DNA of 57,300 nucleotides, filler included, from Streblomastix strix (lineage: Eukaryota), in NCBI GenBank assembly GCA_008636045.1. It is 2 parts of 2 records of this genome, joined end to end, with 100 filler letters (N's around TTAATTAATTAA, not from the genome) between each part and the next. Parts side by side here need not be neighbours in the genome. Positions count along the whole stretch, not along the records: positions 1 to 28,631 come from SNRW01000119.1; 1 more part is not named here. The stretch is one strand, 5' to 3'. Positions 3,242 to 47,739 of the stretch are shown piece by piece (position 1 is the first letter of the stretch; each line of letters begins with the position of its first letter). A program made the translations under genes and the position numbers. The notes under the pieces are model-generated. The model searched no databases. It worked only from the letters and a program-made list of their open reading frames with translations, and had not been told where the DNA came from.

Positions 3242-6200
3242 ATGGAAAAAAAGAGACTTATAGTTGTCTAGGCGTGCAATAGATGTAGAATTAAGAAAAT
3301 AAAATGTAACGGCGAATCTTAGTGTCAACAATGTAGGTCTAAAGGATTAACTTGTGAATATGAGCATAATCAAAATTAAAGTAACACAGCAAATGTAAGT
3401 TAAAATCAATAATTACAGTTTATCACTTAATCATCATTAGCAGAATTTCCAATAAATTCTCAAGTTTCACCTTATTATGATACAATTATTGGATTTTTAG
3501 ATTTAGGATAATCGAAATACTTGTATTTATAAGTTTTTTGTTAATTTATTAATCCTTTCTTCAACTTTTATGGCAATGATATCTCATTTTTCTAATGTTT
3601 TCCATTCAAAGCCAAGAAATTGCTTCTCCAGCTGAAAAATAACGATATTAATACCAAATTTAATCATTATGAGCATATGATGTTACACTATTTTGATGCT
3701 TTGCATCTATAATTTTACACTTTGATAGCATTTGCTGCTAAAATACTTGGACATAATTAAATGATGTAACTAGCTGTGCGATAAGCTCGTGCATATGCAA
3801 GTGGATTATTTGATGTAGCTGGCAATATTGCTGAACACGAAACTCTTGTTTCTCGCCGTACTAAAAGAATTATAAAACCAATTGAATTTATAATGAAGGA
3901 TATTAATGAACCAGTAGAAAACAATTCTGCTTTCATTGAAATATTTGATGATTATTTTAATTAGAAGTAATTAATGAATAAATAGAATAATGTCTCAAAG
4001 CCTCCATTAGAAAAGTTAGATGATAAACAAAGTAAGAAAATCCCAAATATTGTATCCCAGACTGAACAATCAAATTTTTCTAATCAAACAAACAAATTAA
4101 ATGAGAATGAGACCAATGAAAATAGAGAATAGCTTCAAAGCATTGCATACTAATTTCATCAAATAATTTATGGATCTCCAAATTTGAGGTTTCTTGTTAG
4201 AGCACTGATAGTTAGTTCAGCCACAACGCATGCATTAAAACGATCACAGGCAGAAATAATGGAATCTGTCTTCGTACTCGAATATGAACATGGATTGTAC
4301 ATGCTGTCAAAGTTTTTCTTTCTCTTCCCCAATTCTCACAGATCACAGCAACTTTCTTCAATACTTTCTGATATTCATAATTCAAATTACTGCTAAGAAA
4401 TTAATAGAACTGACAATTTTCCATTTCATCAGATGATTATGCATCCTGAGCTTTTAAACAAATCTCCGTAGCATGACTTCACTGCACTTTCATTTATATA
4501 ATGGATTAATGAAATTCAACTTAACAATCCATGACAAACAGATTTAATAAATTAGTCGGATGAGAAAGACAATATATGTTAATAATAAGGAAATGAAAAT
4601 GAATAATAAGATTATTTGAATGAAAGAGAAAAATTAATAAATGAATCAACTGAAAAAGCTGTAGATGATTCGGAGATCCTTAAAAAGAATTCTCTATTGA
4701 AACGTGATAATTTTATATGCATAATTTCAAATCTTCTATCAACGTTATTTTCAATTAATTCATTACTTAAAGAAAAAGAGAAAAAGATTATTTCAATTCC
4801 AAGATCAAATATTTTAACAAATATAAATCAAATTAGAATAAATAAGTTAAGCGGAACAGATGATAATCTCTCACATCGAGATTTATTCGTTCTTGGTTCA
4901 TTAGAATTAAGAAAACTTTATTGTCCAAATTGCATTTAACATAATAATCAAAACGATTTCAATCATTTCAAACAAACTATAAATGCCGATTAAATATCGT
5001 TGAATATTGATGAAGATATAGAGGAATAAAATACAATAAATTGCATTAATAATAATATAAATAATGAAAATAATAGAATTGATTAATTAAGAAATATAAG
5101 ATTAGAAAATAATAGCAACCAAATGAAGAAAAATAGAAAAGATAAAATGCAAAATCCTTTCTTTGAAATTTTATTTATTTTGCATATGAAAGATATTATG
5201 AAGAATCAATAAAGAAAGAAAGAAAACTTTATTTTACTTCCTTTATAATTTTAATCTTCATAATAATCAAATAATATAAATATTTCTAGTAATAATTAAT
5301 AGAATCGAATTCTAAATGAAAAAAGCAAAACAAATGAATCTGAATCATCTTTTGGCTTGAGCACTACTTCATCATTTTAAATTCTGTTTCAGGATTTGAA
5401 TCGTGACATTATATTTAAATAAATAATTTAAGAAGCCTGGGAATAATTAATATTTGACTGTAATAACATGAAAGACGTTATTTTGAAATAAATTAAGAAT
5501 AAAAGGAACTGTCAATTCGTTGTTTAGAACAAAAATATGAAAGATAGCAAAGATAATTAGATAGAAATTGAAGTTGATGTATCTGATAACAAAAACAATA
5601 ATAATTAAAAATAAGATCGCACAAATATAAGCTTGAAATATATGGACTTATTTTTTCCTTCAGTCATTACTGCTAAAAAAGCGGTTTCAAGAATGATGAA
5701 AATTAATTAAAATATATCTTCTTTATTGACATAATTAGATCAATTTGAAGAGAAATAAGAGAAAAATTAATAAAAATAACAAATTAAAAAATTACGTACT
5801 AAATCAAGTAATTAGTAATTTATTCCACTATTATAAAAATCCCAGATAGTTAATTACATTCAGACACTTAAATTTAAAAAGATTTAAATAATTATTAGAA
5901 ATTTTATGAAAACATAATTTGTACATCCGTCTTTTCAAAATATAAACAAAAATAAAAAATAAGAGAAATAAAGTTTAATGATCAAAGATAAAGACTTTAA
6001 ATCAAATGATCTAGAAAATAATCTATAGAATGGAGATTAAGATTAAACTAACAATTATCATTCATTCATGGATAGTGTAGAATAAATAAGTTAATTATTG
6101 CCTGATCATTTTTTAAGTCATTTCTCAACATATTCAGTCAGAGCAGCATATAAAGCATTTTAATATTCGCTGAATGGAAGTTTGCTCAGATAGAGAATAC

Positions 6201-9200
6201 CTTCAGCACTCATTTCTCTTCATCTTCTCCTATTTGGATCAACACCATTAACCTTGGTTCTGTTTAGTCCATAATTATTATATCACATGTTTCCTTTTGA
6301 TCTTTAAATATTAAATCAAATTTAAACTGTTTCTTTGATTAGAACTCTCGCATATTCAGAAAATTTGCTTGTAAGAGGAGGAGCTATAAGGAAAAGATCT
6401 ATTGTAAGTTTGATATAAGAAAATGAAAGTGAAGATAATGATTTGTATGATGGTGAAGATGAAACAGTTTAAAATATAAAAGTGGAAAATGAATTAAATC
6501 AAATAGATATGGAAGAATAAAATGATTTAAATATTGAACTCGAATCAAAGAACTCACTCTCTGGTGGTTCAATTGAGTATGTTTAAGAATAATAAAATAA
6601 TAAAATAAATATGGGTGAGTAGAAATCTATTAATTCTCCATAATCTTCTCATTCTTATCCATAAAAATAAAAAATAAATAATAACAGTTAAAAACATAAA
6701 AAAGATAATGAATTTTCGCCCATAAATAATATTGAAGATTTTTATTATAATATTATTAACAAAAACATTTCTACAATAGAAATTAATGATAATACAAAAG
6801 AAAACAACATTAATAAATAGAATTATAAAAGAAAAGTGTTGGAAACAATTTCACTATTAGATATTTCAGATAATTTACAAAATTAAAATGAAATTAATAT
6901 TGAATCCCAAGAAGAGTAGATAAATCATAGAGGAAGATCATAAAAAGGAAAAAGGAAAGAAAATAATTTAAATTAAACATAAAATGTATTTAAATGTAGT
7001 TGTGGTGAAATAGCTGATGGAATTAATATAGATTTATCTTGTCTGATTAAACCACATATTATATTTAAATAAACATCAAATTAAAATGCATAATCTTCTG
7101 ATTCATCTTCAACTTCTCAGTCTATTTTTTCTTAACCTTAATTATCTTCTTCAATAAAACCATAACAGAATTAAGATCCTTCTTGCATTTATGAAACTGA
7201 ATTTGACTTTTCTTCATTCAATTAAAATTCATTTTTAAATTAAAATAATGATTCTGGTCTTGAATTCATCAGAAATATTCATTTGCTAGAATAGGAATAG
7301 AAACCAAAACAAAATGAACATTTTTCTTAATAACAATTTTCATCTTCGCTTACTTCTTAATAGTAATCTTTAGAGTCTAATACTCAATTTTCACCTTCAT
7401 AAGATGTACGAGAATAAATATAACGATCTATTTAATAATACTTCTAAAAACATGGAAAATAAAGTTGGAATCTTTCTAATAATATATTGGCTGATCGTCT
7501 ATTGTAATATGTGATAGAATTCATACTTAGCGAAATTAAAAGTCGAAATAACAATCCTAATGATAAAGAAACTGATCTTAAGATAAAAACTTCTCACGGA
7601 TCAACGAATTTTCATCCACAAGGAACAAAGGAAACATTATAAAAAGCTGCAGGCGAAATTGTTTCAATTTTCAAATAATTTATTTAAGAAAACAAAATAA
7701 ATTCTTCTTCCTCATTTTCTTAATCATAATAAACATCCTCTTCATCAGATTTAAATTCATAATTACAAATAACATCTAATTAACTTCCTCCATCATTTCA
7801 ACCTTAATCCCTTTTAATACCTCCTCAAGAATAATAATCATAATTCATATTATATGTACTTCTACATAACATTCTATGCTCTTTCATATTTGTTTTCTTA
7901 CATCATTATAACTCGTCTATTATTATTATGAACTCTAATATATAAATTATAAAGAAAATATTTGATTAATTTGGAGTGCTTTATTTTATTAATGGACCAG
8001 CTTGGCTTTATATTTTAGGATTATGTATAATGATTTATGGATTCATACTTTCAAAAGATTAATAAGATGAAGAAGAAGATATATTGGAAGAAAACGAATG
8101 TAAATCAAATAATATTGAAAAAGAAATAAATATTGAATAATTGAAGAATGATAAAATTAATGATAAAGAGTAATAAAAAACTCAAACAAATAAATCTTCG
8201 AATCCAAAAACAAAATAGAATAATTCTTCATCACATCATGTATACCGTATTCTTGATGACAAATTGCTTTATGATTCTTTTCGCTAATATTTCATTCTTC
8301 TACAAATTATGAGACATTTCAAAGATGATACTTAGATGAATGCTTTATTTTGCAAACCATTCAACTTCTTTGCAGATTTATTTGCTACTTATGATGCAAC
8401 TAGTTTTATAGATCGAGATTCTGCTACTTCTGGAGAATTAAAAGATTTCACCATTCAAACAATGGACAACCCAATGTATAAATTTTAATAATAATAATTT
8501 TCTAATATTTCTTCACCATCTTCTTTATAATTTGACTCAACATAAAACCATTTAATTACTTCACCTTCTCAATAATTTCCCTCATTCCTTCCCCCAATAT
8601 TCATTCAAACAGTGAAATTCTTTCTTTAACACTGTTCACATTTCCCTTCACCTAGATCTTCAATTCCTTCTGAACAACCTGACCAATAAACGTCATCTTT
8701 TTTAAAATAAGGAGATTATGTCTCCATTCATCTAAGCTCTTCAGAAGTATTTGATGATATTATTGAAATCAATGATGATTGTATAGATGGATCAAAGGGA
8801 AATGATAAATCTGGTTTGAAAGGGATGAAAGATTAATAATAAATTGGTAAAGTTAAAAGAAATAGAAGTTAGATTTTACTTTCTTCTTCACATTCAAGGT
8901 AAATTATGTAAAATGATTCAGAGGGTATTAAACGAATCCGTTTTAATAACGATGAAAATGATCAATAACAATCAAATATTATGAAAAATGATTCAAGATT
9001 GAATTTTGGAGAGTTGATCAATTAACATGTAGGAATAAGAAGGAATAATTTATAGAGAGGAAACATTACTCGGACTCAAGGAAGAGGATCAGGGAAGGGA
9101 AAAGGAAAAGGAAAAGGAAAAGGGAAAGGAAAAATAAATGAGGAATAAGATTAAACATTATTAAATGATAACTCACATGCTAATATTTAAGATAATAAAC

Positions 9201-9904
9201 TTAATTCTGTATAGAATGGATAAATAAGCATAAATTAATCATTTCCATCAGCTGAATCAAATAACGAATCTTAACATCCAAATTTAAATCCAAATTCAAT
9301 TTAGTTTTCATAATTCGGATAATATTAATAAGATTAATCTTAATTTTAATAATTACAACTTCCTGCAAATCTTCCAAATCTTCAATATTAATAAAGTTAA
9401 CAAAAAATGGATAATCCCATAATATCTTCTTCATCAGACACTTCATATTTTGAGTAGGATAATATTTAGAATTAAAACCATCAAAATTATGAAAATAATA
9501 AATAATTTAATAATGATGATTCAAACGATTTTCTTGATGAATATGATCAATATGACAGTAGAAATGATGCAATAGAATAGAATATTAATTAAGAAATTTA
9601 AAAATTTCCTTACTTATTTAATAATGGTCTTTCTCCTAGTTCTATAGATGGTTAGAATATTCCTGAGAATGACAACATTTTTGGAAATTTTGATCAATAC
9701 TCAACAATGGACATGTAATTTAATTCTGATTTTGATTTTAATGCATCATTTGATTAAAGAAGTGATTTTTGGAACAGATTAGGAACTTCTGATATTCTGA
9801 ATGGATTGGGAATACATCCAAATCTGGTAAACAATAATTTCTCAACAGAAGAATTTGCAAATCTTCTTGAATCATCCCTTGAAATATTTGGGACTAATTT
9901 ATGA
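3242..9904 (+). CDS. Large Zn(II)2Cys6 (Gal4-type binuclear cluster) transcription factor, ~2220 codons, with one in-frame TGA at 4532-4534
   Basis: N-terminus MEKKRLIVVQACNRCRIKKIKCNGESQCQQCRSKGLTCEY fits C-x2-C-x6-C-x5-C-x2-C-x6-C. A helical middle-region-like segment follows (LQFYTLIAFAAKILG...ARAYASGLFD). One frame runs to TGA 9902-9904, ending in an acidic/aromatic tail. Confidence 0.8.
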
Positions 9905-11896: not shown

Positions 11897-11927
11897 AATA
11901 TCACAATTTGTAATTAATAAAATATAT

Positions 11928-12415
11928 ATCATTATTTGGATGAAATTAGATTGTAATCTAAGCATAAAAGAGAAAGAATTAGTTTACTTTCGATTTCTTT
12001 CGTTTCACATGCACTTTTTTGCATTATATACATGTGAATATCTTAATATTCAACCTTTGCCATCAGCAACTCATCAAATCATACTATCAGAATAACGAAA
12101 GAAAAAATGGAAATACTCGCCGTGCAGCGATATTCATATAGCTATATATATTATTGAACTCTGTAAATCCATTCTTATGATCATATTTTAATTCAAACAT
12201 TTAATCACGAATCTGTTCGTTTGTGAATTAGCTCTGAATATTTCTTGATAAAAAATGCCATCAGCACACCTACATTAATTGTATTATTATAATTTAATAT
12301 ATTTTCATATTATTGTTTTTATATCTCGACCTAATCACCCACAAACTTACTATTTATAAAACCATTCAATCGAGCTATTTTTTCTATAAATAATCTTTTT
12401 TAAATTTCTCAACTA
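11928..12415 (+). repeat. ~488-bp intergenic repeat, copy 1 (upstream of SLY1)
   Basis: Near-identical and collinear with 15383-15870. Confidence 0.9.
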
Positions 12416-12501
12416 GAATGTAAAATCATCTACGTATAATATTATTATTTTATTATTCCTTTTCATCTTTTTTTATTTTTCATAAAATACTATAATTAGA
12501 A

Positions 12502-15242: not shown

Positions 15243-15382
15243 AGTCTTTGCTTATTATAAAATATAAATGTCTTATAAAAATTACCAGATTAAAATAAAA
15301 AATTCAAATTTTATAAAAAAATTTTAAATAGACATTTATTGGTTGTAATTTTATTATTTTTATGTAAATAATTGAATTTTAA

Positions 15383-15870
15383 ATCATTATTTGGTTGAAA
15401 TTAGATTGTAATCTAAGCATAAAAGAGAAAGAATTAGTTTATTTTCGATTCTTTTTGTTTCACATTTACCTTTTTGCATTATATACATGAGAAAATATTA
15501 ATATTTAATTTTTGCCATCAGCAACTCATCAAATCATACTATCAGAATAACGAAAGAAAAAATGGAAATACTCACCGTGCAGCTATATTCATATAACTGT
15601 ATATATTATTGAACTCTGTAAATCCATTCTTATGATCATATTTTAATCCAAACATTTAATCACGAATCTGTTCGTTTGTGAATTAGCTCTGAATATTTCT
15701 TGATAAAAAATGCCATCAGCACACACACATCAATTGTATTATTATAATTTAATATTTTTTCATATTATTGTTTTTATATCTCGACCTAATCACCCACAAA
15801 CTTACTATTTATAAAACCATTCAATCGAGCTATTTTTTCTATAAATAATCTTTCTTAAATATCTCAACTA
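15383..15870 (+). repeat. ~488-bp intergenic repeat, copy 2 (upstream of UPF1)
   Basis: Near-identical to 11928-12415, same orientation. Confidence 0.9.
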
Positions 15871-15926
15871 AAATAAATTATTTTTGTGTAATTTATTTTT
15901 TTTTATATACTTGTAAATCATTCAGA

Positions 15927-18900
15927 ATGAACCCTGATCTGGAAGAGAACGTATCTATTGCGACAACGGACTATGATGACCTCGCAACACAAGATACGGA
16001 CAACTTCCGCATGATTGATGGTGATGAAGATGAAGATGAAACAGGAGCATGCAGGTTTGCTTCATTTCTATTTATTATATATTTATTTTATACTATATTA
16101 TGTTATTCAGTTACTGTGGTGTGAGATAACCCCAGTGCATTGTGCAATGCAAGATATGCAAGAAATGGTTTTGCAATGGAAAAGGTGGGAATAGTGGATC
16201 TCATATTATACTACATATGGTATGATCAAAACACAAAGAAATACAGCTCCATCCATCCAGTCCACTTGGTGATGCTAAACTTGAGTGCTATAATTGTGGG
16301 AATTGTAATTGTTTTGTCCTTGGATTCATATCTGCTAAAAGTGAATCTGTAGTTATTCTACTCTGTAGGTATATTACTGATTAATAGTCATTTGAATGAA
16401 TGATAATAATTTTCTTCTTTTATTTATTCTATTATTAAATGTAGAGATCATTTAGCAAGTGGGTCTAAGGATCCAAACTGGGATTTATCACAATGGGAAG
16501 CATTGATATAAGAAAGAGCATTTGTATCATGGCTTGTAGCTGTACCTGAGAAAGAAGATGAAGTTAAATGCAAATCTGTTTCTGTGTCAAAGATTGCTAG
16601 ATTAGAGGACATGTGGTAGAGAGCATCTGCTGTTGCTGCTGCAGAGAAAGATATTTCATCTTCAAGTTCTGGATCACGTAATACTCAATCTAATATTCCA
16701 GGAAGTATAATAAGTAAAGTTGGAGAATATGGATAATATGAAGATATGGGAGAACCAATTAAAGTACCATTACATTTCAGTACAAAGGATGATGATGATT
16801 ATTTCAATATATTTGCTCCTCTTATTGCACTTGAGGCTGAATATGACAGAAAGACAAAAGAAAGTCAAACAAGGAATGGAGTTAATGTCAGATGGGAAAA
16901 GGGACTCAATAAGAAAATGTAGGCTTGTTTCTTGTTCCCAAAAGAAGGATCTGATTTCAAACTACTTACTGGAGATGAATTGAAGTTGTCTCATGGTGAT
17001 ACTGGACGTAATGATGAGTTTCAATGCATTGGACATGTTATTAGGATGAATACTGCAAGTGTGATATTACTTAATAATAATAATATATATATATATATAT
17101 ATATTAATTTTACTTATTATTATTATTCTATAGGTGAAGAAATAAGTCTAGAATTACGTAGTAACCAAGGTATCAATACTCAAATAACTACAGATTATTC
17201 TGTCACATTTGTTTGGAAATCAACATCCTTTGATAGAATGACAAGTGCATTACATACATTTACTAATAATTAAGGATGTATGTCCCCTTTCTTAAGAGCA
17301 TTAATATTAGGAGATAAAATGTTGACTGCTGCTGTATCATAAGTATATTCAATGTCTATTCCATCAACATCTGGAGAAGGATAAAGTAGCAGTAGTTCAA
17401 ATATTAGTGGTTCTTTATCTCCTGATGAAGTAATACAAACAATTGAATAAGCTTATATGGAAGCAACTGGTTGGAAGATGCCTAAATTAAACTCAAAACT
17501 TTCTGCTCCTAATCTTCCTGAATTGAACCATTCTTAGAAGAATGCAGTGTAAAAGTATGCTCAAATACAAAAACATTGGTTATATTCTATTCTTTTTAAT
17601 ATATTTATTTTTAATTATTTTTAATCATTTTATTTGATATACTAATGATTAAAATAATTCATCATAAACCAAGTGTGCTCTAAAGACCAATTTCTCTGAT
17701 TCAAGGTCCACCAGGAACTGGGAAAACTGTGACATCAGCAACAATTGTGTATAATATGGTACAGCTCAGATAAGGATAGATACTTGTATGTGCACCTTCT
17801 AATGTAGCTGTTGATCATCTCACAGAAAAGATTGCAGTAACTGGAGTTCGTGTTGTGAGATTGTGCGCTAAAAGTAGAGAAGCTGTATAATCTTCTGTTG
17901 AGAAATATACATTGCATCGTTTGATGGAGACAATATAAACAACAGAAGCAGACAAATTTCGTAAGTTGCAAAGATTGAGAGACGAATATGGAGAATTAGA
18001 TGAATCAGATTAAAGATTATTTATTTAATTGAGATAAAGAATAGAAAAAGATATATTATCCAAATGTGATGTTATTTGCTGCACTGCTTGTGGTGCTGGT
18101 GATCCTCGTTTGTAGCATTTCAAGTTTGGTCTTGTATTGATGGATGAATCAACACAAGCAACAGAAGCAGAATGTTTGATATGTGCTGTTAAAGGAGCTA
18201 GACATCTTGTGCTTGTTGGAGATCATTGTTAGCTTGGCCCAGTTATAATGTGCAAGAAAGCATCTAAAGCAGGACTCACTCAATCTCTATTTGAACGTCT
18301 TGTATTCCTTGGGATAAGACCAATCAGATTACAAGTGTAGTATAGAATGCATCCTCAACTATCTACATTTCCATCAGTAATGTTCTATGAAGGTTCATTA
18401 TAGAATGGAGTTACAGCAGCAGAGAGAACAGTGAGATCAACAATTTAAGGAAGTAAAGATGGAGAACAAGAAAGAAATAAAGATGTATTTCCATGGCCCC
18501 AACCTGACTGTCCAATGATGTTTCTGAATTCAAATGCAATTGAGGAGATATCATCATCTGGGACTTCATATCTCAATAGAACTGAAGCTGAGAATGCAGA
18601 GAAGATTGTTACTCATTTATTGTAGAATGGAGTTAATCCAAATGCAATTGGAGTCATCGCTCCATATGAAGGATAATGCACTTATATTAGGGCTGTATTC
18701 TAGAGAGTAACTGGACTTGGAATTGGAGTTGGATAATAAATAGGAATAATAACAATAGGTGGATAATAAAGTGGGAAGAAAATGAGCTAATCATCTTCTA
18801 ATTCCAGAGGATTAACATCTGAAATGTATCATGAAGTAGAAATAGCGAGTGTTGATGCATTTCAAGGAAGAGAGAAAGATTATATTATTCTCAGTTGCGT

Positions 18901-20557
18901 CAGATCAAATGAAAAATAAGGAATTGGATTTCTCAATGATCCTCGAAGATTGAATGTTGCATTGACCAGAGCAAGACATGGATTAATTGTATTGGGGAAT
19001 GCAAGAGTACTGTCTAAAGAAGCTCTCTGGAATAATCTTCTTGTTCACTTCTAATAGCATCATTGCCTTGTAGAAGGATTCCTTAACAATCTGAGACCAG
19101 CAAATATTCATTTCCAACCTCCTCGCAAAATAGTTCCCTTTCTTCGTTATTTACCCCCAGAAACACTTGTTGATATTAAATAAGCTGGAGTAAGGACAGT
19201 TAGTGCAGCTGCAAGGTTCTAAGGAGGTATGTTGGGAATGACAGCTGTTACAACTAATGCTTCATTATTAGGATAATAATAATAAGGAAGAGATTGGAAT
19301 CAATAAATTGGATAATAAGGAAAGAATAAAGGAAAAGGGAAGAATAGAGGATTTGGAAAGGGAGATTAAGTAATAGATAATAATTAATAGAGAGGAATGG
19401 GTGTTGAATATCCAGGATCATCTTAGATGATTGGAGGAAGTTGGAATATGAATGATTCTAATTAATAGTCTTAATCTTCATCTTCTTCTTCTTCTTCTTC
19501 TTCTTCTTCAAATGAAGAATAAAATGAATAAAGAAACGATTAGTGGATTTCTTCCTAAGATTCTGTTGCAGCAGCTGCATTGGAAGCCATTTCAGTAGGA
19601 AGGGATAAAGCAAATGGGTTACATGCATCTCTTGGAAGTACAATGCCAATGAATATAACAAATTAAACACAAACTATGTCTGCTATATCTTTATTAACAC
19701 CTTGGATATAGACTCCAATAACTGGAATACCAAATAGTTAAAGTGGAATTGGAGGAAGAAGAATATACTAATCAAATAAATAGAATAAAAGAGGATAAGA
19801 TAATAAGAATATGGTTTATATTGGATCTGCATCATAAAATAAAGAATAATCATAATCATAGGCAGATTCAGATAAATTGAATGAGAAAACAACATCTCAT
19901 TAAGAAAAAGATGAAAATGAAGCTGACTGGGAAAAGGAAGTTGAATAAGAAAGAAAAGAGACTCCAAAAGATCAATAAGAAAAGATTTCTTCAAATCCTG
20001 AAGATAATTAGAAAGAGAAAGAGAAAGAAAAAGATCAATTGGATAAATAGAAAGAAGAAAGTGAAGAAGAAACAAAGAAATCAGAAGAAGAAGGAAAAGA
20101 GAAGAAGAAGAAGAAATTGAAGACAAAAGAAGGAAAAGAAAAGAAAGAGAAGAAAGAAAAGAAAGAGAAGAAGGAAAAGAAAGAAAAGAATAAAGAAAAG
20201 AAATAGAAAGATGATACAATAAAGACAAATGATGATGAATAAAAGATATTTGGTGCATCAGCAGAAATAATTACTTCATTGGATGGATAAACTGAAGTGG
20301 ACAGTCATTATCCTCCATTTACAAGTTTCTATGACATGGACTTCTCATTTGCTTAGAATTAACTTCCTATTTAATCTACATCCTAAACTTCTTCATCTTC
20401 TTCATCATCTTCTTCTTAATAATCATCAAATCCTTTACTTCATTCCGACTTTGGAAGTCTTCCTGACATTGATTTGGGGCCACTTGATAAACTTGAAGAT
20501 ATTGGAGGGAATCTAGATACAGATATTGGTAATGAATATGACTTCGGCATGGGATGA
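15927..20557 (+). CDS. UPF1: UPF1/NAM7 nonsense-mediated decay RNA helicase (5 exons) with an in-frame TGA at 16223-16225 and a long charged C-terminal tail
   Basis: CH domain (ACSYCG...KKWFCNG...[21 protein letters not shown]) and helicase motifs [55 protein letters not shown]. Introns are 16055-16110, 16369-16444, ~17059-17132 and 17555-17673. Confidence 0.95.
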
Positions 20558-21129
20558 TTTTAAGATTTGCAGTTTGACAGATTAATAACAACATATTAAA
20601 CCAATTTGTACTGGAACTGTGTAATTATTTCATTGCAACAAAGAGGATTGTAGCAAACTAAATCTTTCATGCAATACACTATACATCGGCATATACAGAT
20701 CTATATTGCTTGTACTTTCTGTTCAAATAAACAAGGAATTTATAGAGGTTTTATTTTTCTTGACCACAAATTATTATTATTTATTTATTAGTTTTAATAT
20801 GATATATTAGAGTACTAACATGTGAAAAAACTTTGGAATTAATTTTGTGGATAATATTTGATTTCAAGGTTTTTTCTTTCAAAATCAAATCATTTCGAAA
20901 TCATCTCTAAAATTTAATTTGTTACTCATATAATATTATTTAAATAATCAAAATTTTCAACAAATTCTTTGCAATCTCCTTCAAACCACCATTCAAAGAA
21001 AAAGAACGATTTTTTCAATAAATTTAATTGCAAAATCAAAAATATATTAAGTGTAATATAAGGAAATATTAAATATTTTGCATTTAACTTATTATATATT
21101 TAAAATTATTTTTTATTTATCTAGTATTG

Positions 21130-24100
21130 ATGCTATCAACAAAAACTTCTGGAAATCCTTGGATTGTGGTTGTTTGCTGTGACCACAGAATCCGCTCGGA
21201 GTTTGAAAAGGCTGTAGAAAGTGGAATAAAGCTTCGAGAGAAACTTATATCAGGCGCAAAATTAGTAAGTCAGGTATGAAATCACTATGATCCTAAATTT
21301 TTTGAAATATCATATTATTTTTTTTTGATAGGCTATCCAAAGCGATTCACCAGAAAATTAACATGTGCAGATTGAAGCATAGAAAGGAGCCATATCATTT
21401 GATACAATAATAGAATTGATGATAAAAAAGATCATTGATATTAAAGAAAACCGAGATGAACCTGAATAGATTGAAGTTGATGAAAAAGCTAAAGGTAAAG
21501 GATTGGATAAAAAAGATAAGAAAGGATTGAAAAAAGACGACAAAATATAACAAAAGAAAGAAGATAAACTGCAATTAAAGAAGGAAGATAAAACTTAACT
21601 TAAAAAAGATGAAAAATCTCCTGTAAAGAAAGATGATAAACCTCAACTGAAGAAAGATGATAAATAATCAGGAAAAAGAGAAGAAAGATCAAATTCTGCA
21701 ATAGGAAAATAAAAATCAACGAAAAATAAAGCAAATAAAGATGCTCTATAAGATTAAAAAGATTAGAATATGGAAAAACAATATTCAATGGATCCAGATG
21801 ATGCACCTGATATCCCATAATATCCGCAGAAATTCCTTCTTATAACAGGAATACCAGATGATTTATCTGCATTATTATAATTTCACACTAAGTTATAGGA
21901 ATATGATTTACGTGTTAATGCAATAATTAATATCAGATCTGTGCCTTTTATCCCAGATTCATTTATGAAGCTTCTCCTAAGATCATAAACTAAACTACTA
22001 TTTCCTTCACCTTAAATGCTTGGGATTAAATAACAAGAAATTGGATTGAGTAATCAAATTGTAGAAAAAGAAAAACAATCAAAAGTTAAAGACTAATAAA
22101 AACAATAATAAGTAAGTGTTGTAAAGAAGAAAGATAAAGATAAAGATAAAGAAAAAAAAGATTTTATATTTGAAGAAGGATTAGAATCTCTTGGTCCAAA
22201 CTTCAGTTATTAATTATCTAATGCAGGAATTACAGCAATGTAAGATGTTATTTAATAATAATAAATATTATATTAAAGAATATTAAATAATGATAATTAA
22301 TAAAATTCATTTGAACCTCCTCCAGATTTGGAAGTATTTAATGAACTTGAATAAACTGACATAAGTAGAACACATTTATCATTATTTGATTAAGTGTGTC
22401 TTGTAAGAAGAATATTAATTGATGGTCCAACTGCCATTTTAAGAGGAATAATTACAATTGAAATTCTAGGAGGAGTTCCATTTCATTTAAATATTCATGC
22501 TTAACTTCCTCCTGATCAAACATAAGTTAATTTATCTACAATTATATAAAACTAATCTTAATAATAACCAAGTATATAATAATCACCAATGGTATCTCCT
22601 AAAGGTGATCCTAAATAATCTAAGAAATAATAGACGTAACTTAGATCAGGATCTTCTCATGGGAGTACAACTGAATAAAAATAAGATATAATCGAATTAC
22701 CAGATGCATTTGCTCTTATTAGTTAATCCGCTCCTAAAATTCCAGATCTCCCAAAACCAACTCTTATTCCATTAACATACTCAAAAGCATAAGAATCATC
22801 TCCACTCAAAACAATTCAAAAAGAAATTCTCTTTCTGAATCCACCTCCATTATATCCATCTACATATCCAGGATAATCTCCTTATTCTACTTTAAGTCCT
22901 TATTCTCCAGATAATCATGAACCATCTTAATATACTTTAGCATCTGTTTCATCAAATTCATTTCATAATATAGAATAAATAGCAATTCAATTCTAAGGTT
23001 TAACTTCTACACTTCCTGATTCTCCTTATTCACTTCAAAAGATTACTCCAAATTAACCTGTATTATGGTCAATACCATAAAATAACTTCTTTATTCCACC
23101 TCCTATACTGTATATACCTAAGGATGGTATTACTATATTAAGAGAGATACATTTATCAATAGCTTAGATTGCTGCAAGATAAAGCTTATATTAATTATGG
23201 ATTGAAGGTGCTTCTGTAGAAAGCAATACAATTAATAATAAATAAGAAAATGAATAAAATGATTAAATAAATAATCTCGATAATTATTTAAGATCTTCTT
23301 TTGATTAATAATAAATCTTAAGTAAAGAGTAAAGACAGTCATTAATTTAATAAAGTAGAATAAATAGAGTAACTTGAGGAGTACCATATGAATAATATTT
23401 AGTTGTTTCAGATTATTCTAAATTACCTAAAAGTGATTAGAGAATGGCATAAAGACTTGAATAAATAAGATTAAGAGATCCAATTGCAAGATAAGAAAGA
23501 ATAAACAAAGATAAGAGAGATAAAGATGCATTAATTGCTGCATTAATTGCTGAAGAAGAATCATTACGTGCTGGTTTAGATTAGAAAGGAAAGAAGAAAG
23601 GATAAAATATATTAAATTAGAAAGATAAAGATAAAGATAAAGAATTGGAGAAATAAAAAGAATTGGAGAAATAGAAACAGAAATAATAATAATTAGAGAA
23701 AGAGAAGGATAAAGACGTTGAAATAATAAAAGAATAACAAACTGAGAAAGAGAAAACAAAAAAGAAAAGCAAATCACCTCCAAGAAAAGGAAAAGATGGA
23801 GAAAAATCACCAAATAGAGGAACATTAAGAAGAAGCATGAAAGATTAATAATAAGATTAATAATCACCAAATTGAGGAACATTAAGAAGAAGCATGAAAG
23901 ATTAATAATAAAATTAGTAATAAGAACAATCTCTTTTAGGAAGAACATCTTTGAATGATAAATTTGAATCTAAAAATGAATAAATAATATTTTAAGAATA
24001 AAGTGAAGATAAAAGTGAAAATGATTAAATAATATAAAATGAAGAAACTGGAGATGAAATTGATGAAGAGGAATTAATGAGAATTGAACTTATAAGAAGA

Positions 24101-27100
24101 AGAGCAGAAAATGCAATAGAAGAAAATTAGTTAGATGGTACATTAGCTGTAGATGCAAGAAGATATAAAAGAACATTGGATAGATTAGTTATAATAATAA
24201 ACCCAGAAGCTGCATTTGCAACTGCATTTGCTTCTAAAGCAGATTAATAAAAACAAAGAGATTCTATATTTGGAGTATAATAATAAGGAAGTAGTGGAAG
24301 TGGATAATAATAATAATCATAAGGAGATATAATACCAATAATACCTCAATTGCCTGCACATGGGTTTAATATTTGGTTTGGCTTATATTAAACTCCAATT
24401 AAACTAGATGATGATATTAATAAAGGAACAACATCAAGAACTGTAACTGCATAAGAAAGCAGAAGAAATACAGCAAATTCAATAAATAGAAAGAAATTTG
24501 GAAGAAGTTAAAGGCCAGATTCTTCATTATCTAACAGACCCCAAACAGCGAATTCATAGACATCTTAAACTCCATCTTTATAATCATTCACTTCTTAAAT
24601 ATAGAATAATAATAGATAAAATAATTTATAAAGAAAGTAAATATCTTCATCAAATAAAGCAATTAATTAATCTAATCTCTCTCTTGCAACTCTGGCTCAT
24701 AGTTCTTCACACACAAACAGTAATGAATAAGCAATATTACATTCAATTGATATTGGTCTTGTTGAATCTCTTATTCTTCATGCAATGATTGACTAAATAT
24801 AATTTGAAGCGTAACTTAGAGGAAAGGTTAAAGTTCAACAACGTAAAATATAAAAGAGACCCACTTCAAGTTCTTCATAGACTTAATCATCTATTAATCT
24901 AGTTCAGGGAAACAAAGATAGTTAAAATCCTCCTGTTAATTAAAGCGTTGAAAAAGTGAAAAAAGATCATAAAAAGGGTTAGGCAGAAAAGCGTCATTCA
25001 GATAAATAGGAAATAGAAGATTAGAAATCAGCAGAAGAAAATGCATAAGCTGAATTTGATGCTGCATTACTTGCTGAAGCAGAAGCATTGGAAGCAGCAA
25101 TTGTAGAAGCAGAGAATGAAAGAAATGAATAAATAGAATAATAAAGGAAAGAAGATGAACAAAGACTTTTAGAAGGAGCAATTGAATCTTCATTTAAAGA
25201 ACTTCTTCGTCTTGGAATAAATAAAGGGAAGAGAGATTTTATTGAAGAAAGATTTCAAGAATTCAAAAGAAGTCATCTTATTTAATAGTAATAGTCAATA
25301 TAATAAACAATTGTAGGATAATCAAAGAGCGAAGAACTAACTCAATTCAATTAACCACAATAAGATTTATAATAAAAATCTTATTCTTCTTCTATAGTGT
25401 AATAATTTTCATCAAATTAATAAGTTTCATAACTAATGCCTTAAATTACATAACCAACTTATGTATAATAACTTTCTCCACAAACTTAAATATCTCAATA
25501 ATTACAACTTAGAGCAATAAGTCAACCAGGAAAGTTGAAGAAAACATATTCTACGCTGTCCTCTAAACCAACTATGCAAGTTTAAAGAGCAAAAACAATG
25601 GATTAGGCATTTTAAGGATATCCAATTAAATAAATTGAAGTAAGAGCAAAAGGCCCAGTTTCACTTAGGGATTTCATTTTAAATAAATTAGGTATTATAG
25701 ATTTTGTTACGCCATAGGCTTAAATGTCTTTGAATTAGATATAATCATCTTCTTCAACCAAATTAACAAATGGATCTTAACCAGAACAAAATAAATTAGG
25801 AGAATAAGATAAAAAATAATTAGGAACTTAATAAGGATAATCATAAGTATAGAATAAAGGAGTTGATTTAGTTACTAAACAAAGCAATGAAAATACTATA
25901 GGTAAATTAAGATTATAAAATGAATAATAGCCAATTACATCAGCTAGAAATGACGACTCTTAAAAGAGTACATTTGTTTCGAAAGTAATTTCAGGAGATG
26001 GATATAATTCAGCTAGAAATGGTGGTAATCCAGCTTAAGTAGTGAAAAAGACTCCATTAATTGCATAACCATAATTAATGGGTGTCTTATCTAATTAATC
26101 TTAACTTAAATAAATTGGTTCTCCTCCAACACCTTATCCTCCTTTAAGAAGACCAGGAATGTTAAAAAGACAATAATCAACAATTGATACTAGTTCAAAG
26201 AATAAATTAAAAGGAATGACAAGAATGGATGATGCTATTAATGGTTAAAGTGTTTAGAATAGTACTGTTAACTTACAAGATATTGTTTAGTCCGTATCTG
26301 AAGAAGTTCGTAATCCTTCGCTATCATATTAATCTGCAAGTATTCAAGACCTAACAAAAGCTGCAAATAATGTTCTCAAAAGACCTCGATCTCATATAAA
26401 TCCTCAATTGATGTAACTTGTTTCTATTCATATTCGTACACTTGGGATAATACCATCTGTATTAACATTATCAACATAAACAACATTATCACTAATGTAT
26501 GGAACCTTGTTCATATCTCCTTCTTTTCAAATAGCTGGAACATAAGGATCAGGAAGTGGTGGATCAAATTAATAAGATTAAAAAGAATCTGGAGGAATTG
26601 GGTTTGCATTTCATTTTGGAGGGAGTGGAGCAAGTAATGAATAATTTAATATAATGTAATAGTATGCACCTCATATTCATATCATGTAGCATATGCTAGA
26701 TCTTCCTACTAAAGTACCAACTCTATGTCCTTAACCAGCTTCACCATCAGAATAAACTGCATTTATTCTTTCATTCTTAACACCAACACCATAAATTGTA
26801 ATTAATACACGATCTTAATCATTAAAAATTATACAAAGAGCTGAGTAATCATTAATAACATTATTAAATCAAGCGAATAATTCTGATAGTAGGGATCAAA
26901 AAGGAAAGAAACAATTTTCAGGTTAAGAATTTGATTTATCTAAATAATTATAAAAATCATAATTATCACATATGGAAAATATAGATGAATAAGAAGAGAA
27001 AGGATTGGAAAAGAATGATATTAATTAATAATTACAAAAATTATAAGGAAGTCCAAATTTTGATAGATCATAATCACCTGGAATTACATCATTACTCTCA

Positions 27101-28631
27101 CCAAATAGCCCATAAATAGATAGTCCACCAAGATAAATGGCAAGAAGATAAAGTATTGTATAAAGAAAGTAATAATAAGCATATTTTGAAAGAAATAAAT
27201 TAGCTATTGGTCAAAACTCCGATATATGCAAAGTAGTTTAGGAGCCTGTTGTCAAATTTTCAACAGTCAATACAGTTGTTGCATTTCCTACTGGTACTGT
27301 TGTAACATTATAATAAATGAAGAAATAATAACTTAATGAGAATGGATAACAACAACAATAATAATAATAATAATAATAATAATAAGGAGAAGGAGCAAAT
27401 GCTTCTACTGAAACATAACCTCAGTTACAACCTTCTCAAACATAAATGAGAAATGTATAAACAAGAATATTAGGAGCTCCAACTATTACTATTAATAATA
27501 TAATGCAAATGATTGGTTATCCAGTCTCAATTGGATAATTCTTTAATTAAGATCCATCAAAACTTCTTTCTTCACTTATACCACAGAATACTGGACTTCC
27601 TTCACATGCCCTATTTCCAATGATATTTCCACTTACTCTCCATATAGAATTATTTGTAAATGCTCTTTTTAGATTCTTCTTCCCATCATCTGCAAAAAGC
27701 ATAACAAAGGCCATGCAATCACTTGGATTAAATTCAAGTAAATAGAGTTCTTAAATGGGTAAAATGACTGGAATGGATGGAAGTACAATATCTCTTGTTG
27801 GAGGGATTAATAGGTAAAATACAACATTCACTTTCAATCGTAGTAGTAATTAAAGTGCATATAGCTCTAAATTATCATCTGCTATTATGAGTCCATCAGA
27901 TACTGCACTATCAAGTAGAGCAACAGATTCTAAATTAGTTAAATATGATACACAATCTGCTGCATCTAAATTATTAGTATAAATGCTGTTCTAAATGATT
28001 GGAGGTGGTCGTTAAGGGGATGATCATCAGTTGCTCTATGGAAATTATAGGACTTAGGGAATTATTTTTGATACATTCAGTTAAGTAAATTCTTCACTTT
28101 CATTTCATAAGATAGCAATTCAATATTTTAATGCTATTAAAGCAAGAGTATAATCATAATGGGTTGGATTATCTGATGTTGATTATAGTACAATTGTTAA
28201 CACGTAAAAGAATGGATAAAAACTCTCACTCCAATATAATCCTTTATTACCTTCTATTTCTCCATCTTTCTTATAGAGATATAGTGCATAACATTAAACA
28301 ATGTCTTCATTTAAAGATTCAATTATAGCTATGGTTAGTGCAATTCAATTAGCATAATAAGAATAGAAAACAACCACACTTGTGTAATAAAAACTATATC
28401 CAAACAGTACAAATCCAAACGATTTCTTAACCACTTTAGATGTTGAAGGCTCATTTGCTGAATCTAAGGATTTCTTTAGTAGAGTAGGAGATGAAGTATT
28501 AAGAGATGTTATGTCTGATGATGATTCACTATGTAGAATACTTGTATGCGCTTAATTCTCTGAAATGTTGGGATCAGAACCAGATTCTTCTGGGTTTCTA
28601 TACATTTCATCTAATGCACCAACTGGGGGAG
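21130..28631 (+). CDS. Very large SPAG17/PF6-like (axonemal central-pair) protein, 3'-truncated by the contig end, with an in-frame TGA at 23375-23377
   Basis: After intron 21274-21331, one frame runs to the gap. The N-terminal layout (IIELMIKKIIDIK, K/D/E-rich linker, DPDDAPD...KFLLITGIP...RVNAIINI) resembles SPAG17 as I recall it. The assignment is tentative. Confidence 0.6.
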
Positions 28632-28731
28632 NNNNNNNNNNNNNNNNNNNNNNNNNNNNNNNNNNNNNNNNNNNNTTAATTAATTAANNNNNNNNNNNNN
28701 NNNNNNNNNNNNNNNNNNNNNNNNNNNNNNN
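28632..28731. other. Artificial contig-joining linker (44 N + TTAATTAATTAA + 44 N)
   Basis: Symmetric N runs around a six-frame-stop 12-mer. Confidence 0.95.
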
Positions 28732-28858
28732 GGTTTTAGACTATTTGCAAATATTTTAATAATAAAAATGAAAATTTAATTAAAAATAGTAGATAAAAAT
28801 GTATAAAATAAAATCAATGCTTAAATTCAGATATATAGCAAACAGAGAAAAGTGAAGA
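28732..28858 (+). repeat. 127-bp terminal direct repeat of contig 2 (copy 1)
   Basis: Identical to 57174-57300. Confidence 0.97.
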
Positions 28859-29222
28859 AAAGACGAAGGCCATGCTACTGTGAATGTATAGTTTTTTAGC
28901 ATTATCATCTGCCATCACACTCATCGCTTGCTGCACAATTTGAAAAACAAGAAAAATTAAATATAAAGTCCGTTTATAATGTGCATTGATAGAATTGATT
29001 TGTTTATACAATCAATTTCATAAGTTAAGTCTCTTATCTTACTTGTGGATAAAATCGCAAAGCATCGATGAAGTGCGACAGATTCTCGTATGAGTCATTT
29101 TCTCGAACTTGCGAAAAAACTGCCGCGGGAGCTACGTAGAGCTGCACCGATGGAAGAACTACTAGGGCGGGCAGGACGTCCACTGTCCTAAAGCTATCGT
29201 CTGACTTGTTCAGCTGCTTCTT
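28732..29222 (-). pseudogene. CYFIP: 5' exons of a CYFIP/Sra1 pseudogene that continues across the contig junction into 57182-52133
   Basis: VDVLPALVVLPSVQ...YENLSHFIDALRFYPQ|QAMSVMAD...KLYIHSSMAF aligns with the CYFIP N-terminus. The ATG present in the paralogous copy (49418-49416) is AAG here. Confidence 0.7.
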
Positions 29223-29840
29223 ACATGTTTAAATCAGGAATAATCGACGATTATTAAATTAAAATTTTAAAAAAAAGTTAATAATAAAATATCATTATTT
29301 TGAAATATTTCTTAATTAATATTCATTTCATGAACATAATTAAGAATATAAATGTTCATTGAGAACTTTCATGCGAGATGTTGCTGAAATTTTGGCATTT
29401 GTTGTTCTTAGTGCATTGTTCTTACATTTGACTCTTCATATTTACATTCCTTATATATTCATGTGTCCAAAAGGATTCTTAAATTATTTATTAATTTTTG
29501 CATTCTTTGCATCATAAACGATAATTTTTTTAATTTATCTAAATTCTGCTATCAACATTCTTTTATTTTACTTATTTATTTCAAATTTGAATGTTATATT
29601 ATTTCGCCGATTTTAATCTAATAATTTTCAGATTAAATTCAATCATCCTATTCTTTATTACAAAAAATGAACATTTTCCATTAATCGTTAAATTACACAC
29701 GTATCATTTAGAACTTGTACATATTAATTATTCAAAGTTACGCCATTTATAATCGTCTAATCAATTTTACTTGTCTTTATTTGACATATTAATATTAGGT
29801 TACACTTTAATTATATTTTCATTATTATTTATATTTAAGA

Positions 29841-31366
29841 ATGAAAGAAGAGAAAGAGAAAGATTTAAAAATCGCATAAACAAAAATTGAAGAACAAGAA
29901 AAAGAAATTGCGAGACTTCAATCTCTACTAGTACATTCTTCAACATAATAATAACCGTAATAATAATAGTCAAGTATATAAGTAGTTTCAGTACCAACTG
30001 TTGATGAACAAGGCTATTAGTCATATCCAGCTGAACCACCTCCTTAATATCGACAAGCAATATATCAATAACATGCATATCAACAAAAGAAAATTCCTAA
30101 TTAGAATCAAATTTCAACAATTTCTTAAGTACCAATATATCAAACCATTCCTTCTAATACAATGTTAAATTCTGAAGCGATGAATGCAAAACTTAATCTT
30201 TTTTCTGGTGCACAATCTGGTATTATAAAAGAAATATATTTATTTAATTAAATAAACAATCAATTCTTAAATTTCTATAAATTTAATTTAATTTAATATT
30301 TTATCATAAGATTCAATTCCATATGCCGCTTAAATACCAAAAAGTCTTCTTTTTAAAGATGTTAAAGTTAAAGAAGATACTTTTACTTTGAATAATGACA
30401 ATAGAACTACAATTCTGTTCGATCCATTGATTAGTAAAGGAATAATTAAATTTGAAGTTTTGAACGTTAGTAGTTTAGATGGTTATTTCCTATTTATTTT
30501 TGTTTAAAATTGAATAAATAAATTCAAAAATATTTTTAATTTTCAAATTAATTCATTCTTTATAATATTTATGATTATTTATCCAATAAACAGCTGTTGG
30601 AATCGCGGACGAAACTGTGAAATATGGACGAAAGGAATTTCCTTCGGCAAGAGGTATATAATTATTTTATGATAAGGAATAAGATATATAATACAAATTA
30701 TTATCTTTTTATTCTATTAAAATAAATTTATTAGGATATGAGAATATTGTTAGATAACATCAGAAGTATGTTTATTATTCTAAAATTTATTTATTAACTC
30801 TAAAATATTTTATTTAAACTTATTTTTAATTATTTAGCGGTTGGATTGGTCATACTGGCGAATGGATTGAAGGAAATGCAAGGTTCTGGAATGCTGGAGA
30901 CCGTGTTGCATTGGAGGTTTGTATGAATAGAGATAGATTTATTTATTATTAATATATTTGAAAATGAATGAAATTAAGAATTTATTTAATTTTATTATTT
31001 TTATTATCAGATGGACATGGATTCAAGCCCGCGAACGTTGACATTCTTTGTCAATGATGAGGAGCAACCGAATTTTGTAACCAATATTCCTACTGCCGTC
31101 AGATTCTTTGTTTGACTAAACAAGAATTTATTAAATATAATTATATATTAATAATCATTTAAATAATTTTATATTATCATATTTATTTATTAATATTTAT
31201 TTAATAGGTATATCTCGAAGTAAAAGATTAAGCATTTAAAGTTCTGAAATTCGAAGCCTTGTCAGCTCCAACAGCAAAACATTCAACTGGGTCACGTGCT
31301 TGGGAATATGGAACAAAATGGGAGAAGTAAATGAAAGATTTAAGAGAAGAAGAAAATAAGAAATGA
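29841..31366 (+). CDS. Coiled-coil/Q-rich protein with SPRY/B30.2-like domain, paralog A (7 exons)
   Basis: TILFDPLISKGIIKFEV, VGIADET, GDRVALEMDMDSSPRTLTFFVNDEEQPNFVTNIPTAVRFF, GSRAWEYGTKW; GT-AG introns. Confidence 0.75.
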
Positions 31367-31553
31367 TATGATGCTGTTGGAAAGAATGTTTGATTCAATC
31401 TGATTGAAGAAGAATGATCCAGTTTTTGAATTCAACTCTTTAATAGTCAAATGTTGCATTTTTAAACTTTAGTCGTATTTAAAAAAATAAATTCTATTAT
31501 TATTAAATATTAACAATTTTTTATATTGAAAGTTGATTGATCTTGCATTTTTA

Positions 31554-32569
31554 TTGGGGATGTCAAATTGCCACAGGGGGTAAAGTGGGGCAGGGCAAAC
31601 CAGAAATGTGGGTCAGCCTAATATTCAATATAATACAAAAATAAATAGAATTTTTTTCTAAACTTAAAAAATATGAAGAAAAAAATGTGAGTTTATCTAT
31701 CTTCACTAACTACTGTTATTTAGTAGTTTATGAAATATAAAACGGCTTTAAATTAACCTAATTTGTATAAAATTAAATAGTATGTAGTAATATTGTTTTG
31801 ACTTGCTGATTAACGTGAAAATTTGTCTTGAAATTTTTAATAAAATCATATTTGGTGTATAGTCAGGAATATTTTGTTTTGATTTGCAAATTAAAATTCA
31901 AGTATTACTATATAAAAAAGAATTCAATAACTATTTTGAGTGTATAATTGTGAAAGTGTTGGTTAAATGAAAAAATTAAAAAATGCGCACTTTTTATCAG
32001 AAGTAAGTTAAATATCAACAATTATATTCAAATGTGCTAGCAAATATTCATATTAATTAAATAAAATATAGAGAATGGAATAATGAATATTGATATATCG
32101 TGAAACAAGTGGGGCAAGCTTTTAATTGGGGGAATCAGTATTTAATTGGGGGCAAAAATTTAATTGGGGGCAGAATTTTTTAATTGGGGGCAGCTGCCCC
32201 TTTTTATTTTTGTGACATTTATGGGCAATTAATCAAAAAATTAGTAATTAGAAAAGATTTAAAATAGTAATGAGCACATTTTTATACAATTTTGAAATAT
32301 AATGTTGGATTTCTCGTCTTAAAAAGAGCTTGCCCCACTTTGCCCCCAGTTAATTTATATTTTGAGCTAGAAATATATTTGATATCAATTATTATAAATA
32401 TAAATTAATGTGAATAATAAAATACTTTTAATATATTATTAACAAAATTTATAATCATGCTTAGAAGATTTTTTTTTATTTATTTTTTTATTTTTTTTAA
32501 CAAAGTGGGGCAAAAACAAAATCGGGGCAGGGTTTTTAAACGTAGGGCTTGCATTTCTGGAATCACCAA
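31554..32569 (+). mobile_element. Non-autonomous TIR DNA element (MITE-like) with TGGGGC subterminal repeats
   Basis: Imperfect TIRs TTGGGGATGTCAAA ... TCTGGAATCACCAA, many (T)GGGGC(A) motifs including four tandem TAATTGGGGG, and no ORF. No clean TSD was found. Confidence 0.65.
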
Positions 32570-39488: not shown

Positions 39489-40536
39489 ATGGGCTAATTT
39501 ATAAAACTTTAGAGGATTGATTGGATCCGTTTTAGGTCCGTTGCGGAAGATTTTTTTCGTAGGGGTGAAGAATTCAATACTATATTCGACATTATGCGTG
39601 CTACATATGGTAAAATCAATCCAGAGAGAGATACCTTGTACCGGTGGGAACGCGTTTTAAATCGACGGGAAATATCGTATATTACACTATATCTCCTGGT
39701 GCATCATAAATTCCTGACCTATCAACTAAAATACTTCTATTAATTAAAGAAAATCCACACATTTCACTTAGACGACTGGCTGGCGTGCTAAATCACTCAA
39801 TTGCATCAATTGGAACCGCGATTGACAGGGACCTGCGAATGAAACGTGTGTCACTCAGGTGGATTCCACATATACTATCGCAAATGAATCTGGATGACCG
39901 TATGGAAACATGATATGAGCTACTGCCATTTCTAAGAAAAATGAAGAAAAATAATTATGTAGGGCTTGTAACGGGTGACGAATGTTGGTTATACTTAAAT
40001 CATCCAACAGATTCAGTATGGATTGGTGTAGATGAATAGACTCCAGAAAGAGCGAGAAAAGTGATAGGATCGCAAAAAGTAATGATAACGGTTTCTTGGG
40101 GCGCTGATGGGATCTGGCACATTCATGCTTTGCCTCATGGGAAATCAATGACTTCAGCCACATTCATCAATGATATATTAAGACCACTTTTTGGTAAAAT
40201 GCATGAGGGTATAGAACATCTTGATTAGGTGTACGTACACTTCGATAATGCAACCAGTCATAATGCAAAACTAACAACACAATATTTAAATGATAACAAA
40301 ATCATTCGAATAGCCCATCCTGCTTATTCCCCAGACCTATCTCCATCGGATTGCTTTCTATTTGGCTATATGAAAGGGAAACTGAAAGGGAATTCATTCA
40401 AAACAGCAGAAGAGGCTGTAGATGCAGCAAAAAAAACCTCTATGAAATTCCTCAATAAATGCTAAAATCATCATTCGACAACTGGTCTACCAGAGCACTC
40501 TACATGAATACTAATGGTGGGAAATACTATAAATGA
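39489..40536 (+). mobile_element. Decayed mariner (DD34D-type) transposase
   Basis: WIPHIL, VTGDECW, KVMITVSW, HFDNATSH and YSPDLSPSD motifs, with several frameshifts and one TGA. A possible left end TA|CAGGGTGTC lies at 39337. Confidence 0.88.
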
Positions 40537-47052: not shown

Positions 47053-47739
47053 TCAGCGCCTGCGAATGAAAAGGTTTAGTATCGTTGCTTTTGCGTAGTT
47101 TGCATAATCCAAGATTTTACCATTATTTCCATTGTTTTTCATTTACGCTTCTATTTCTTCATTGGCTCCTTCTTCTTCCATTTATTCTTCAGTATTTCGA
47201 GCAAGTAATGGAAGTGGTTGGAAGGATGGTTTATAATCATTATTTCTCCCTTAATATAGATCTTTGAGGAACCAGTAGATGCAATTCAATCCATAAAAGA
47301 TCTCCTAATCTTACTCCTCGCCGATGCCTCCAGCTGTACTGAATGTAATGGACATCACTCTTCCATATCCATTATTAATAAGTTCTGTTTAATTTTATTC
47401 GTCTCCATATTCTTGAATCAGACTAAGACAATCTCTACTCCAGATTCTTATTTCTAATCTCTAATTATCTACATCTAAATCAATGCGGTTACCAAGTCTG
47501 AAAGTGACAAGTGCTGAGAGTGATCGAAGAAGAGTCGGAATTTAAGTAACTGATTTACAGGCAATGTTATCCCATATTTGATCTCTAAGATAGTAAAGAT
47601 AAGCTGAAATTTCAACAAGAGATGGTGTTGGTTCCGAATCTGATTATTTATTTTGTTTTCCTTGCTTGTTTTATGCGTATGAATCAGTGAATGTAATTAT
47701 GGCTCTTGCTGCATTTTAGATTTAATAGTCCGATTGCAT
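47053..47739 (-). CDS. Helical hypothetical protein of a lineage-expanded family (TAGGIGEEQD...QPLPLLAR...EEEGANEEIEAQ)
   Basis: 229-codon frame open under TAR=Gln and ending in TGA. The 5' end is uncertain. Confidence 0.65.

Follow-up and report, generated by a model that had tools for sequence, protein, structure and literature searches.

The UPF1 gene of Streblomastix strix carries, at codon 81 and within the zinc-binding CH domain of its product, a fixed and unedited in-frame TGA that is likely read as arginine. The reading we favour, at a probability of roughly 0.6, is that UGA has two roles in this organism, that of a rare sense codon within genes and that of a stop at their ends, with UAA, UAG and UGA meaning Gln, Gln and Arg-or-stop, respectively; the UGA in UPF1 is likely Arg because such sense use of UGA is likely in the organism. 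The codon-81 TGA behaves like a regular element of the organism's genetic code, which the earlier note on this DNA had missed.

The window, i.e. the whole stretch of 57,300 nucleotides that was analysed, has a GC content of ~26% and short AT-rich GT-AG introns, and yields long frames only with TAA and TAG as Gln. Under genetic code table 6, for whose use in Streblomastix strix Keeling and Leander 2003 is reportedly the work cited, TGA is the sole stop. TAA and TAG occur as sense codons 651 times among the 7049 codons of four long frames, and one SNP in UPF1 is a synonymous TAA/CAA exchange. Reading of TAA/TAG as Gln, a termite gut habitat and AT-rich introns of ~ 55–120 nt have been described for this oxymonad (PMC1501061, PMC13002328), in agreement with the window, and a UPF1 fragment of 258 codons was noted in 2006 (PMC1501061). 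In the accessible portions of these descriptions, TAR=Gln is the only reassignment given (PMC1501061, PMC13002328); in those of the 2026 paper, the code was set from tubulins and the terms UGA, TGA and readthrough have no occurrences (PMC13002328). Literature searches, which covered titles and the beginnings of abstracts of freely accessible papers, returned no report of sense UGA in oxymonads.

The UPF1 locus comprises the following features.

15927 to 20557, plus strand: UPF1 gene, five coding exons, 1434 codons, table 6 usage
15927-16054, 16111-16368, 16445-17058, 17134-17554 and 17674-20557, plus strand: UPF1 coding exons
16223 to 16225, plus strand: internal TGA, codon 81 of 1434, CH zinc-binding domain, predicted from the sequence to be likely Arg
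16220 to 16246, plus strand: 27-nt GT..AG look-alike enclosing the codon-81 TGA, recognised in the sequence and absent from the cDNA joints
20555 to 20557, plus strand: terminal TGA of UPF1, the putative true stop, with the coding score falling from 0.55 to -0.18 across it

The spliced frame amounts to 1435 codons and has table 6 stops at codon 81 and at its end only, the helicase part being open under table 6 and no other code. Introns 1 and 2 are backed by cDNA joints; introns 3 and 4 were positioned on sequence alone. Both features of the UPF1 family are present: a CH zinc domain (E 7e-33 to the UPF1/NAM7 CH domains in PDB) and an SF1 helicase, with best matches of E 5e-267 in a mostly plant set and E 5e-189 among diverse representatives. 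C-R-D-H-L, spanning intron 2 (16366-16460, plus strand), forms the last of the zinc-ligand motifs in the CH domain; other UPF1s presumably have C-x3-C at this place, and His may act as a substitute for the last Cys. A C-terminal extension of ~450 residues with Q/G/E/K runs (19200-20557, plus strand) contains a short T-A-x-S-x-x-S-L-L-T-P-W-like motif in common with protein P0008, the best match among diverse representatives.

Sequencing runs containing the window come from termite gut, and read contigs were placed on positions 15900-17050 only, a span that covers one of the four internal TGAs of the long frames. In the DNA run X1, a 533-nt contig displayed no differences from the window over 15900-16356, ruling out a base-call error at 16223-16225. 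The depth of this contig (16.2) was close to the summed depths of the two alleles in a neighbouring bubble (10.3 and 8), and the codon-81 TGA is therefore likely present on both X1 DNA haplotypes. Runs X2 and X3 each produced one contig of ~ 3.2–3.3 kb in which introns 1 and 2 were skipped at GT..AG; as these contigs were spliced and ended in an oligo that we take to be template-switch-like, they were treated as cDNA. They differed from each other in their SNP sets, carried no listed change at 16223-16225 (depth 55 and 24.5, respectively) and both kept 16220-16246. The premature-looking TGA inside the CH domain was thus confirmed both in DNA (one contig) and in spliced cDNA (two contigs), and it is not spliced out, removal through the 27-nt GT..AG span being rejected because that joint is absent from the cDNA.

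X1 is possibly the window's own sample and so not independent, and X1–X3 belong to the same study, with X2 and X3 representing other haplotypes; the TGA at codon 81 is common to at least three, and likely four, haplotypes. Contigs also lose rare variants, and in exon 2 of X2 five of six differences were listed. Within these terms, the RNA-versus-DNA comparison proposed in the earlier note showed TGA in both of the two cDNA contigs, contrary to an edited codon as the majority state. Pieces of a 550-bp non-coding duplicate (11909-12456 and 15363-15906, 92% identical), whose copies lie directly upstream of a Sec1-like gene and of UPF1, matched the 5′ loose ends of both cDNA contigs, which suggests a 5′ UTR intron of UPF1 of ~490 nt (15437-15925) with variable donors.

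The listed exonic variation among same-species records was exclusively synonymous. All 18 distinct listed exonic SNP sites of UPF1 leave the protein unchanged, whereas 21% would be expected to do so at random (p about 5e-13, transition bias ignored); per source, the synonymous fraction of listed changes was 10/10 in X2, 10/10 in X3, 2/2 in X1 and 3/3 in the near-identical records 13 and 18 of a further run, X4. Three of the sites precede the TGA, and ten follow it ahead of the next Met (codon 185). As changes both before the TGA and in codons 82-184 are synonymous only, both a decaying null allele and re-initiation at Met185 are excluded, and ribosomes must pass codon 81. We regard translation through the codon-81 UGA as very highly probable. 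Of the two routes proposed earlier, readthrough or editing, the former is supported by synonymous-only variation together with TGA in cDNA, and the latter is not supported as the majority state, both cDNA contigs keeping TGA.

The identity of the residue was approached through relatives of the gene. Record 17 of X4, a 151-nt contig (depth 2) from a relative, displayed 26 differences from the window, of which 18 were listed, spread over 15 codons, and the eight unlisted ones lie near the contig ends. In 14 of these 15 codons the listed change is synonymous, including CAG to TAA, so that the source is also an organism with TAA=Gln; the fifteenth is the codon in question, with CGT (Arg) opposite TGA. 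The flanks of codon 81 show a gap-free alignment with the CH domains of UPF1 from human and yeast, which have Arg and Leu, respectively, at the site, and the homolog pattern given in the earlier note is right. Among 150 diverse representatives, 88 proteins covered the position (R34 K29 L6 M4 I4 Y2 H2 S2 W1 N1 E1 Q1 V1), with R or K in 63 and Cys in none; among 120 mostly plant matches, Arg was present in 115 of 116 covering proteins. Metagenomic CH-domain loci had R20, K9 and I3 of 32, none of these 32 loci being more than 71% identical and none carrying TGA, and the three closest exon-2 fragments (72–78% identical, exon borders apparently in common) had K, R and R. Hydrophobic residues are tolerated as well, as the yeast Leu illustrates, and Arg partners do not prove the inserted residue, since the same pattern would follow from mutation of CGA or AGA to a tolerated nonsense codon; on sequence comparison, codon 81 is likely Arg. 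Lys stands at the site in several metagenomic UPF1 loci (L008–L015), six of these eight having in-frame stops under the standard code, which makes ciliates with altered codes their likely source.

Four internal TGAs were found in the 7049 codons of the four long frames, three of which were affected. Besides that in UPF1 (16223), they are as follows.

4532 to 4534, plus strand: internal TGA in a 2219-codon gene (3245-9904), followed by 1789 open codons, with the next in-frame ATG 197 codons on
23375 to 23377, plus strand: internal TGA in a giant frame (from 21329 to 28630 or beyond), which an intron of 3n length could remove
23873 to 23875, plus strand: internal TGA in a tandem repeat of the giant frame, the preceding repeat copy having AGA (Arg) at 23816-23818

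Eight candidate GT-AG spans of 3n length enclose the TGA at 23375, with a GC content of 0.23–0.26 as against 0.09–0.17 in the four UPF1 introns; within the limits of the script used, no 3n intron candidates spanned 4532 or 23873. In long intact frames, both internal TGA sites that could be aligned correspond to Arg, i.e. codon 81 of UPF1 and the repeat twin, and the exchanges that carry this evidence are TGA versus CGT in the relative and TGA versus AGA in the tandem repeat. Leave-one-out codon scores remained coding-like after the internal TGAs, at 0.24, 0.02 (UPF1), 0.40 and 0.51 in order of position and with that of UPF1 weak by itself, and fell to -0.43, -0.84 and -0.18 after three terminal TGAs (non-coding mean -0.32, sd 0.21). 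We consider it probable that UGA is bifunctional throughout this organism, as sense inside genes and as stop at their ends, and lean moderately towards Arg as the residue.

The 2219-codon gene carries a motif that we take to be Zn2Cys6-like. The giant frame (21329-28630, plus strand) has more than 2,430 codons and is rich in Q, K and S; none of 3900 candidates was a homolog of residues 560-900 of its product, the region of the TGA. The 127 bp following the N gaps (28632-28858) have an identical copy at the window's end (57174-57300), which suggests a scaffolding join, with the true end of the giant gene uncertain.

Other TGAs occur outside the long frames. A 2.7-kb duplicate (28907-31554 and 49102-51755, 86% identical) comprises a repeated element and an intron-rich gene, presumably SPRY-like. 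In this multicopy paralog pair, a TGA at 51497 stands opposite TGG, 12 codons before the stop. In the other copy, a 2-nt deletion immediately ahead of the stop brings TAA directly behind the final codons that the two copies share, a possible hint that TAA serves as a stop close to a 3′ end. A multicopy pattern used to look for further DNA of this organism had no matches in metagenome contigs or in viral contigs, and no Pfam families were matched in six frames of 47701-57299. A frameshifted mariner-type transposase (39500-40500, plus strand; E 3e-20 to SETMAR) has a TGA at 39911 opposite Ser. A C-terminal kinase fragment (38150-38389, minus strand), followed by a SPRY-like part, has in-frame TGAs at 38330-38332 and 38210-38212, one of them opposite Ala in CDK16; this fragment may be a pseudogene or may hold further readthrough sites. 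As both elements look broken, their TGAs were judged uninformative; those opposite Ser and Ala may be pseudogene lesions and were counted against Arg all the same.

The foremost alternative keeps a context-dependent sense UGA across the genome but has it read as Trp, or as a mixture of Trp, Cys and Arg through near-cognate tRNAs, so that it survives at tolerant positions only, in the manner of the Q,Q,W code of Condylostoma and Parduczia. The TGG partner in the paralog pair fits this, as do the presence of L, M, I, Y or W at the UPF1 site in 17 of 88 homologs and the setting of the internal TGAs, three of four being in regions of poor conservation or low complexity. Trp is also the default readthrough residue, with 86% W, 7% C and 7% R at UGA in yeast (as quoted in accessible portions of PMC4967479), and in one study, as far as its accessible text goes, even overexpression of the Arg tRNA(UCU) did not lead to reading of UGA (PMC4748822); Arg would consequently need a special tRNA. 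Codon usage points the other way. Internal TGA makes up 0.057% of codons, next to 261 ordinary Arg codons, and TGG outnumbers it 28 to 4 despite a strong A-ending bias (AAA 432 vs AAG 129; TAA 548 vs TAG 103), a pattern unlike free use of UGA for Trp. UPF1 has 15 Trp codons, none of them TGA, W occupies the site in a single homolog of 88, and Trp at codon 81 would be the sole amino-acid change among the 15 codons compared with the relative. We consider insertion of Trp or of such a mixture unlikely. ARAGORN found no tRNA genes in the window.

A programmed partial readthrough specific to UPF1, linking the level of the protein to termination fidelity, appears more doubtful still. A TGA upstream of three introns makes an NMD target in a standard system, and here it is fixed, early in the mRNA, in the NMD helicase itself; such feedback could equally arise as a by-product of a changed code. 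Against a UPF1-specific device stand the internal TGAs in two unrelated genes, the plain CGT in the close relative and the lack of TGA in the 32 metagenomic loci. Downstream of the TGA there is no stable 3′ stem (z 0.41), and with U as the +4 base the context is the one that leaks least in yeast, according to the accessible part of PMC4748822. The proposal that readthrough efficiency might set the NMD level accordingly found no support. Editing of a minority of transcripts to CGA, AGA or TGG, as the source of all protein, is very improbable: a minor class could escape notice in contigs that drop rare variants, but both cDNA contigs carry TGA at appreciable depth and the listed RNA–DNA differences are all synonymous, as alleles would be. 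Selenocysteine was rejected on the absence of Cys, SECIS and 3′ fold, and its chance is smaller again. Sec machinery is described for oxymonads in the accessible portions of PMC6759080 and PMC10703272, and the codon lies in a Cys/His-rich domain; however, Cys occupies the site in 0/88, 0/116 and 0/32 homologs, seven weak Rfam matches (E up to 10) in 15300-21400 included no SECIS, with the proviso that divergent protist elements may escape the models, and shuffled sequences fold as well as the 3′ region does (z 0.10). An equally slight chance attaches to a null allele or pseudogene, or to a UPF1 without CH domain that results from re-initiation at Met185. One transition leads from CGA to TGA, which would suit a recent null allele as once suggested, but all 18 SNP sites are synonymous, ten of ten in codons 82-184 that would be untranslated under re-initiation, and TGA is present in all covering same-species haplotypes.

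Under the preferred reading of UGA as Arg inside genes and stop at their ends, decoding could be achieved by an Arg tRNA with anticodon UCA, or with UCG and G:U pairing at the first codon position, in parallel to the step from CAR to UAR for Gln. By analogy with the proposal for Condylostoma (PMC4967479), such a tRNA would outcompete a weakened eRF1 at a distance from the mRNA 3′ end, and termination would win near the poly(A) tail. All three stop codons would in that case be variants of CAA, CAG and CGA with U in first position, and NMD would have to ignore internal UGA, including that in the mRNA of UPF1 itself. In its full form, to which we give about even odds, the proposal is a code without a dedicated stop, in which UAA/UAG mean Gln and position decides whether UGA is Arg or stop. 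It would have originated independently of ciliates by the same first-position C-to-U change for all three codons, in an organism with working NMD whose UPF1 can be produced only if an internal UGA is read.

The closest known counterparts, as given in the accessible portions of the papers cited, are spirotrich ciliates (Uronychia setigera, U. binucleata, Stylonychia lemnae, Sterkiella, Tetmemena, Paraurostyla and Uroleptopsis), for which a Q,Q,R code has been deduced by computation from TAA/TAG=Gln and internal TGA at Arg positions of homologs, as here (PMC10089648). They belong to a different supergroup; Streblomastix is likely on the side of Metamonada, implying an independent origin. TGA is far rarer here, with 4 internal against 651 TAA/TAG codons compared with 987 against 11,723 in U. 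setigera (PMC10089648, in part), and unlike in the spirotrich case, translation at one site is backed by cDNA and population variation. Condylostoma magnum and Parduczia (Q,Q,W) resemble the present organism in a rare sense UGA in essential genes under purifying selection and probably in UGA also ending genes; the share of sense UGA is 0.042–0.12% in these ciliates, a range that includes the value found here (PMC4967479, accessible portions). The residue likely differs, being Trp there, as shown by mass spectrometry and ribosome profiling (PMC4967479), and likely Arg here, going by aligned homologs. In Blastocrithidia (E,E,W, with UAA as stop) all three stop codons are likewise sense codons, and the loss of UPF1 and UPF2 beforehand is thought, in the accessible text of PMC12153298, to have eased the change. 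In contrast, UPF1 is kept here under purifying selection and itself carries an internal UGA.

If true, this reading would mean that a textbook table 6 organism holds a hidden bifunctional UGA, with gene models truncated or split at each such codon. It would be the first code without a dedicated stop in metamonads, as far as literature searches show, and an independent case of UGA=Arg, which is otherwise inferred only in ciliates. It would also bear on the idea, drawn from Blastocrithidia, that loss of NMD must precede the spread of internal stops, as in Streblomastix strix UPF1 is both conserved and a carrier of UGA.
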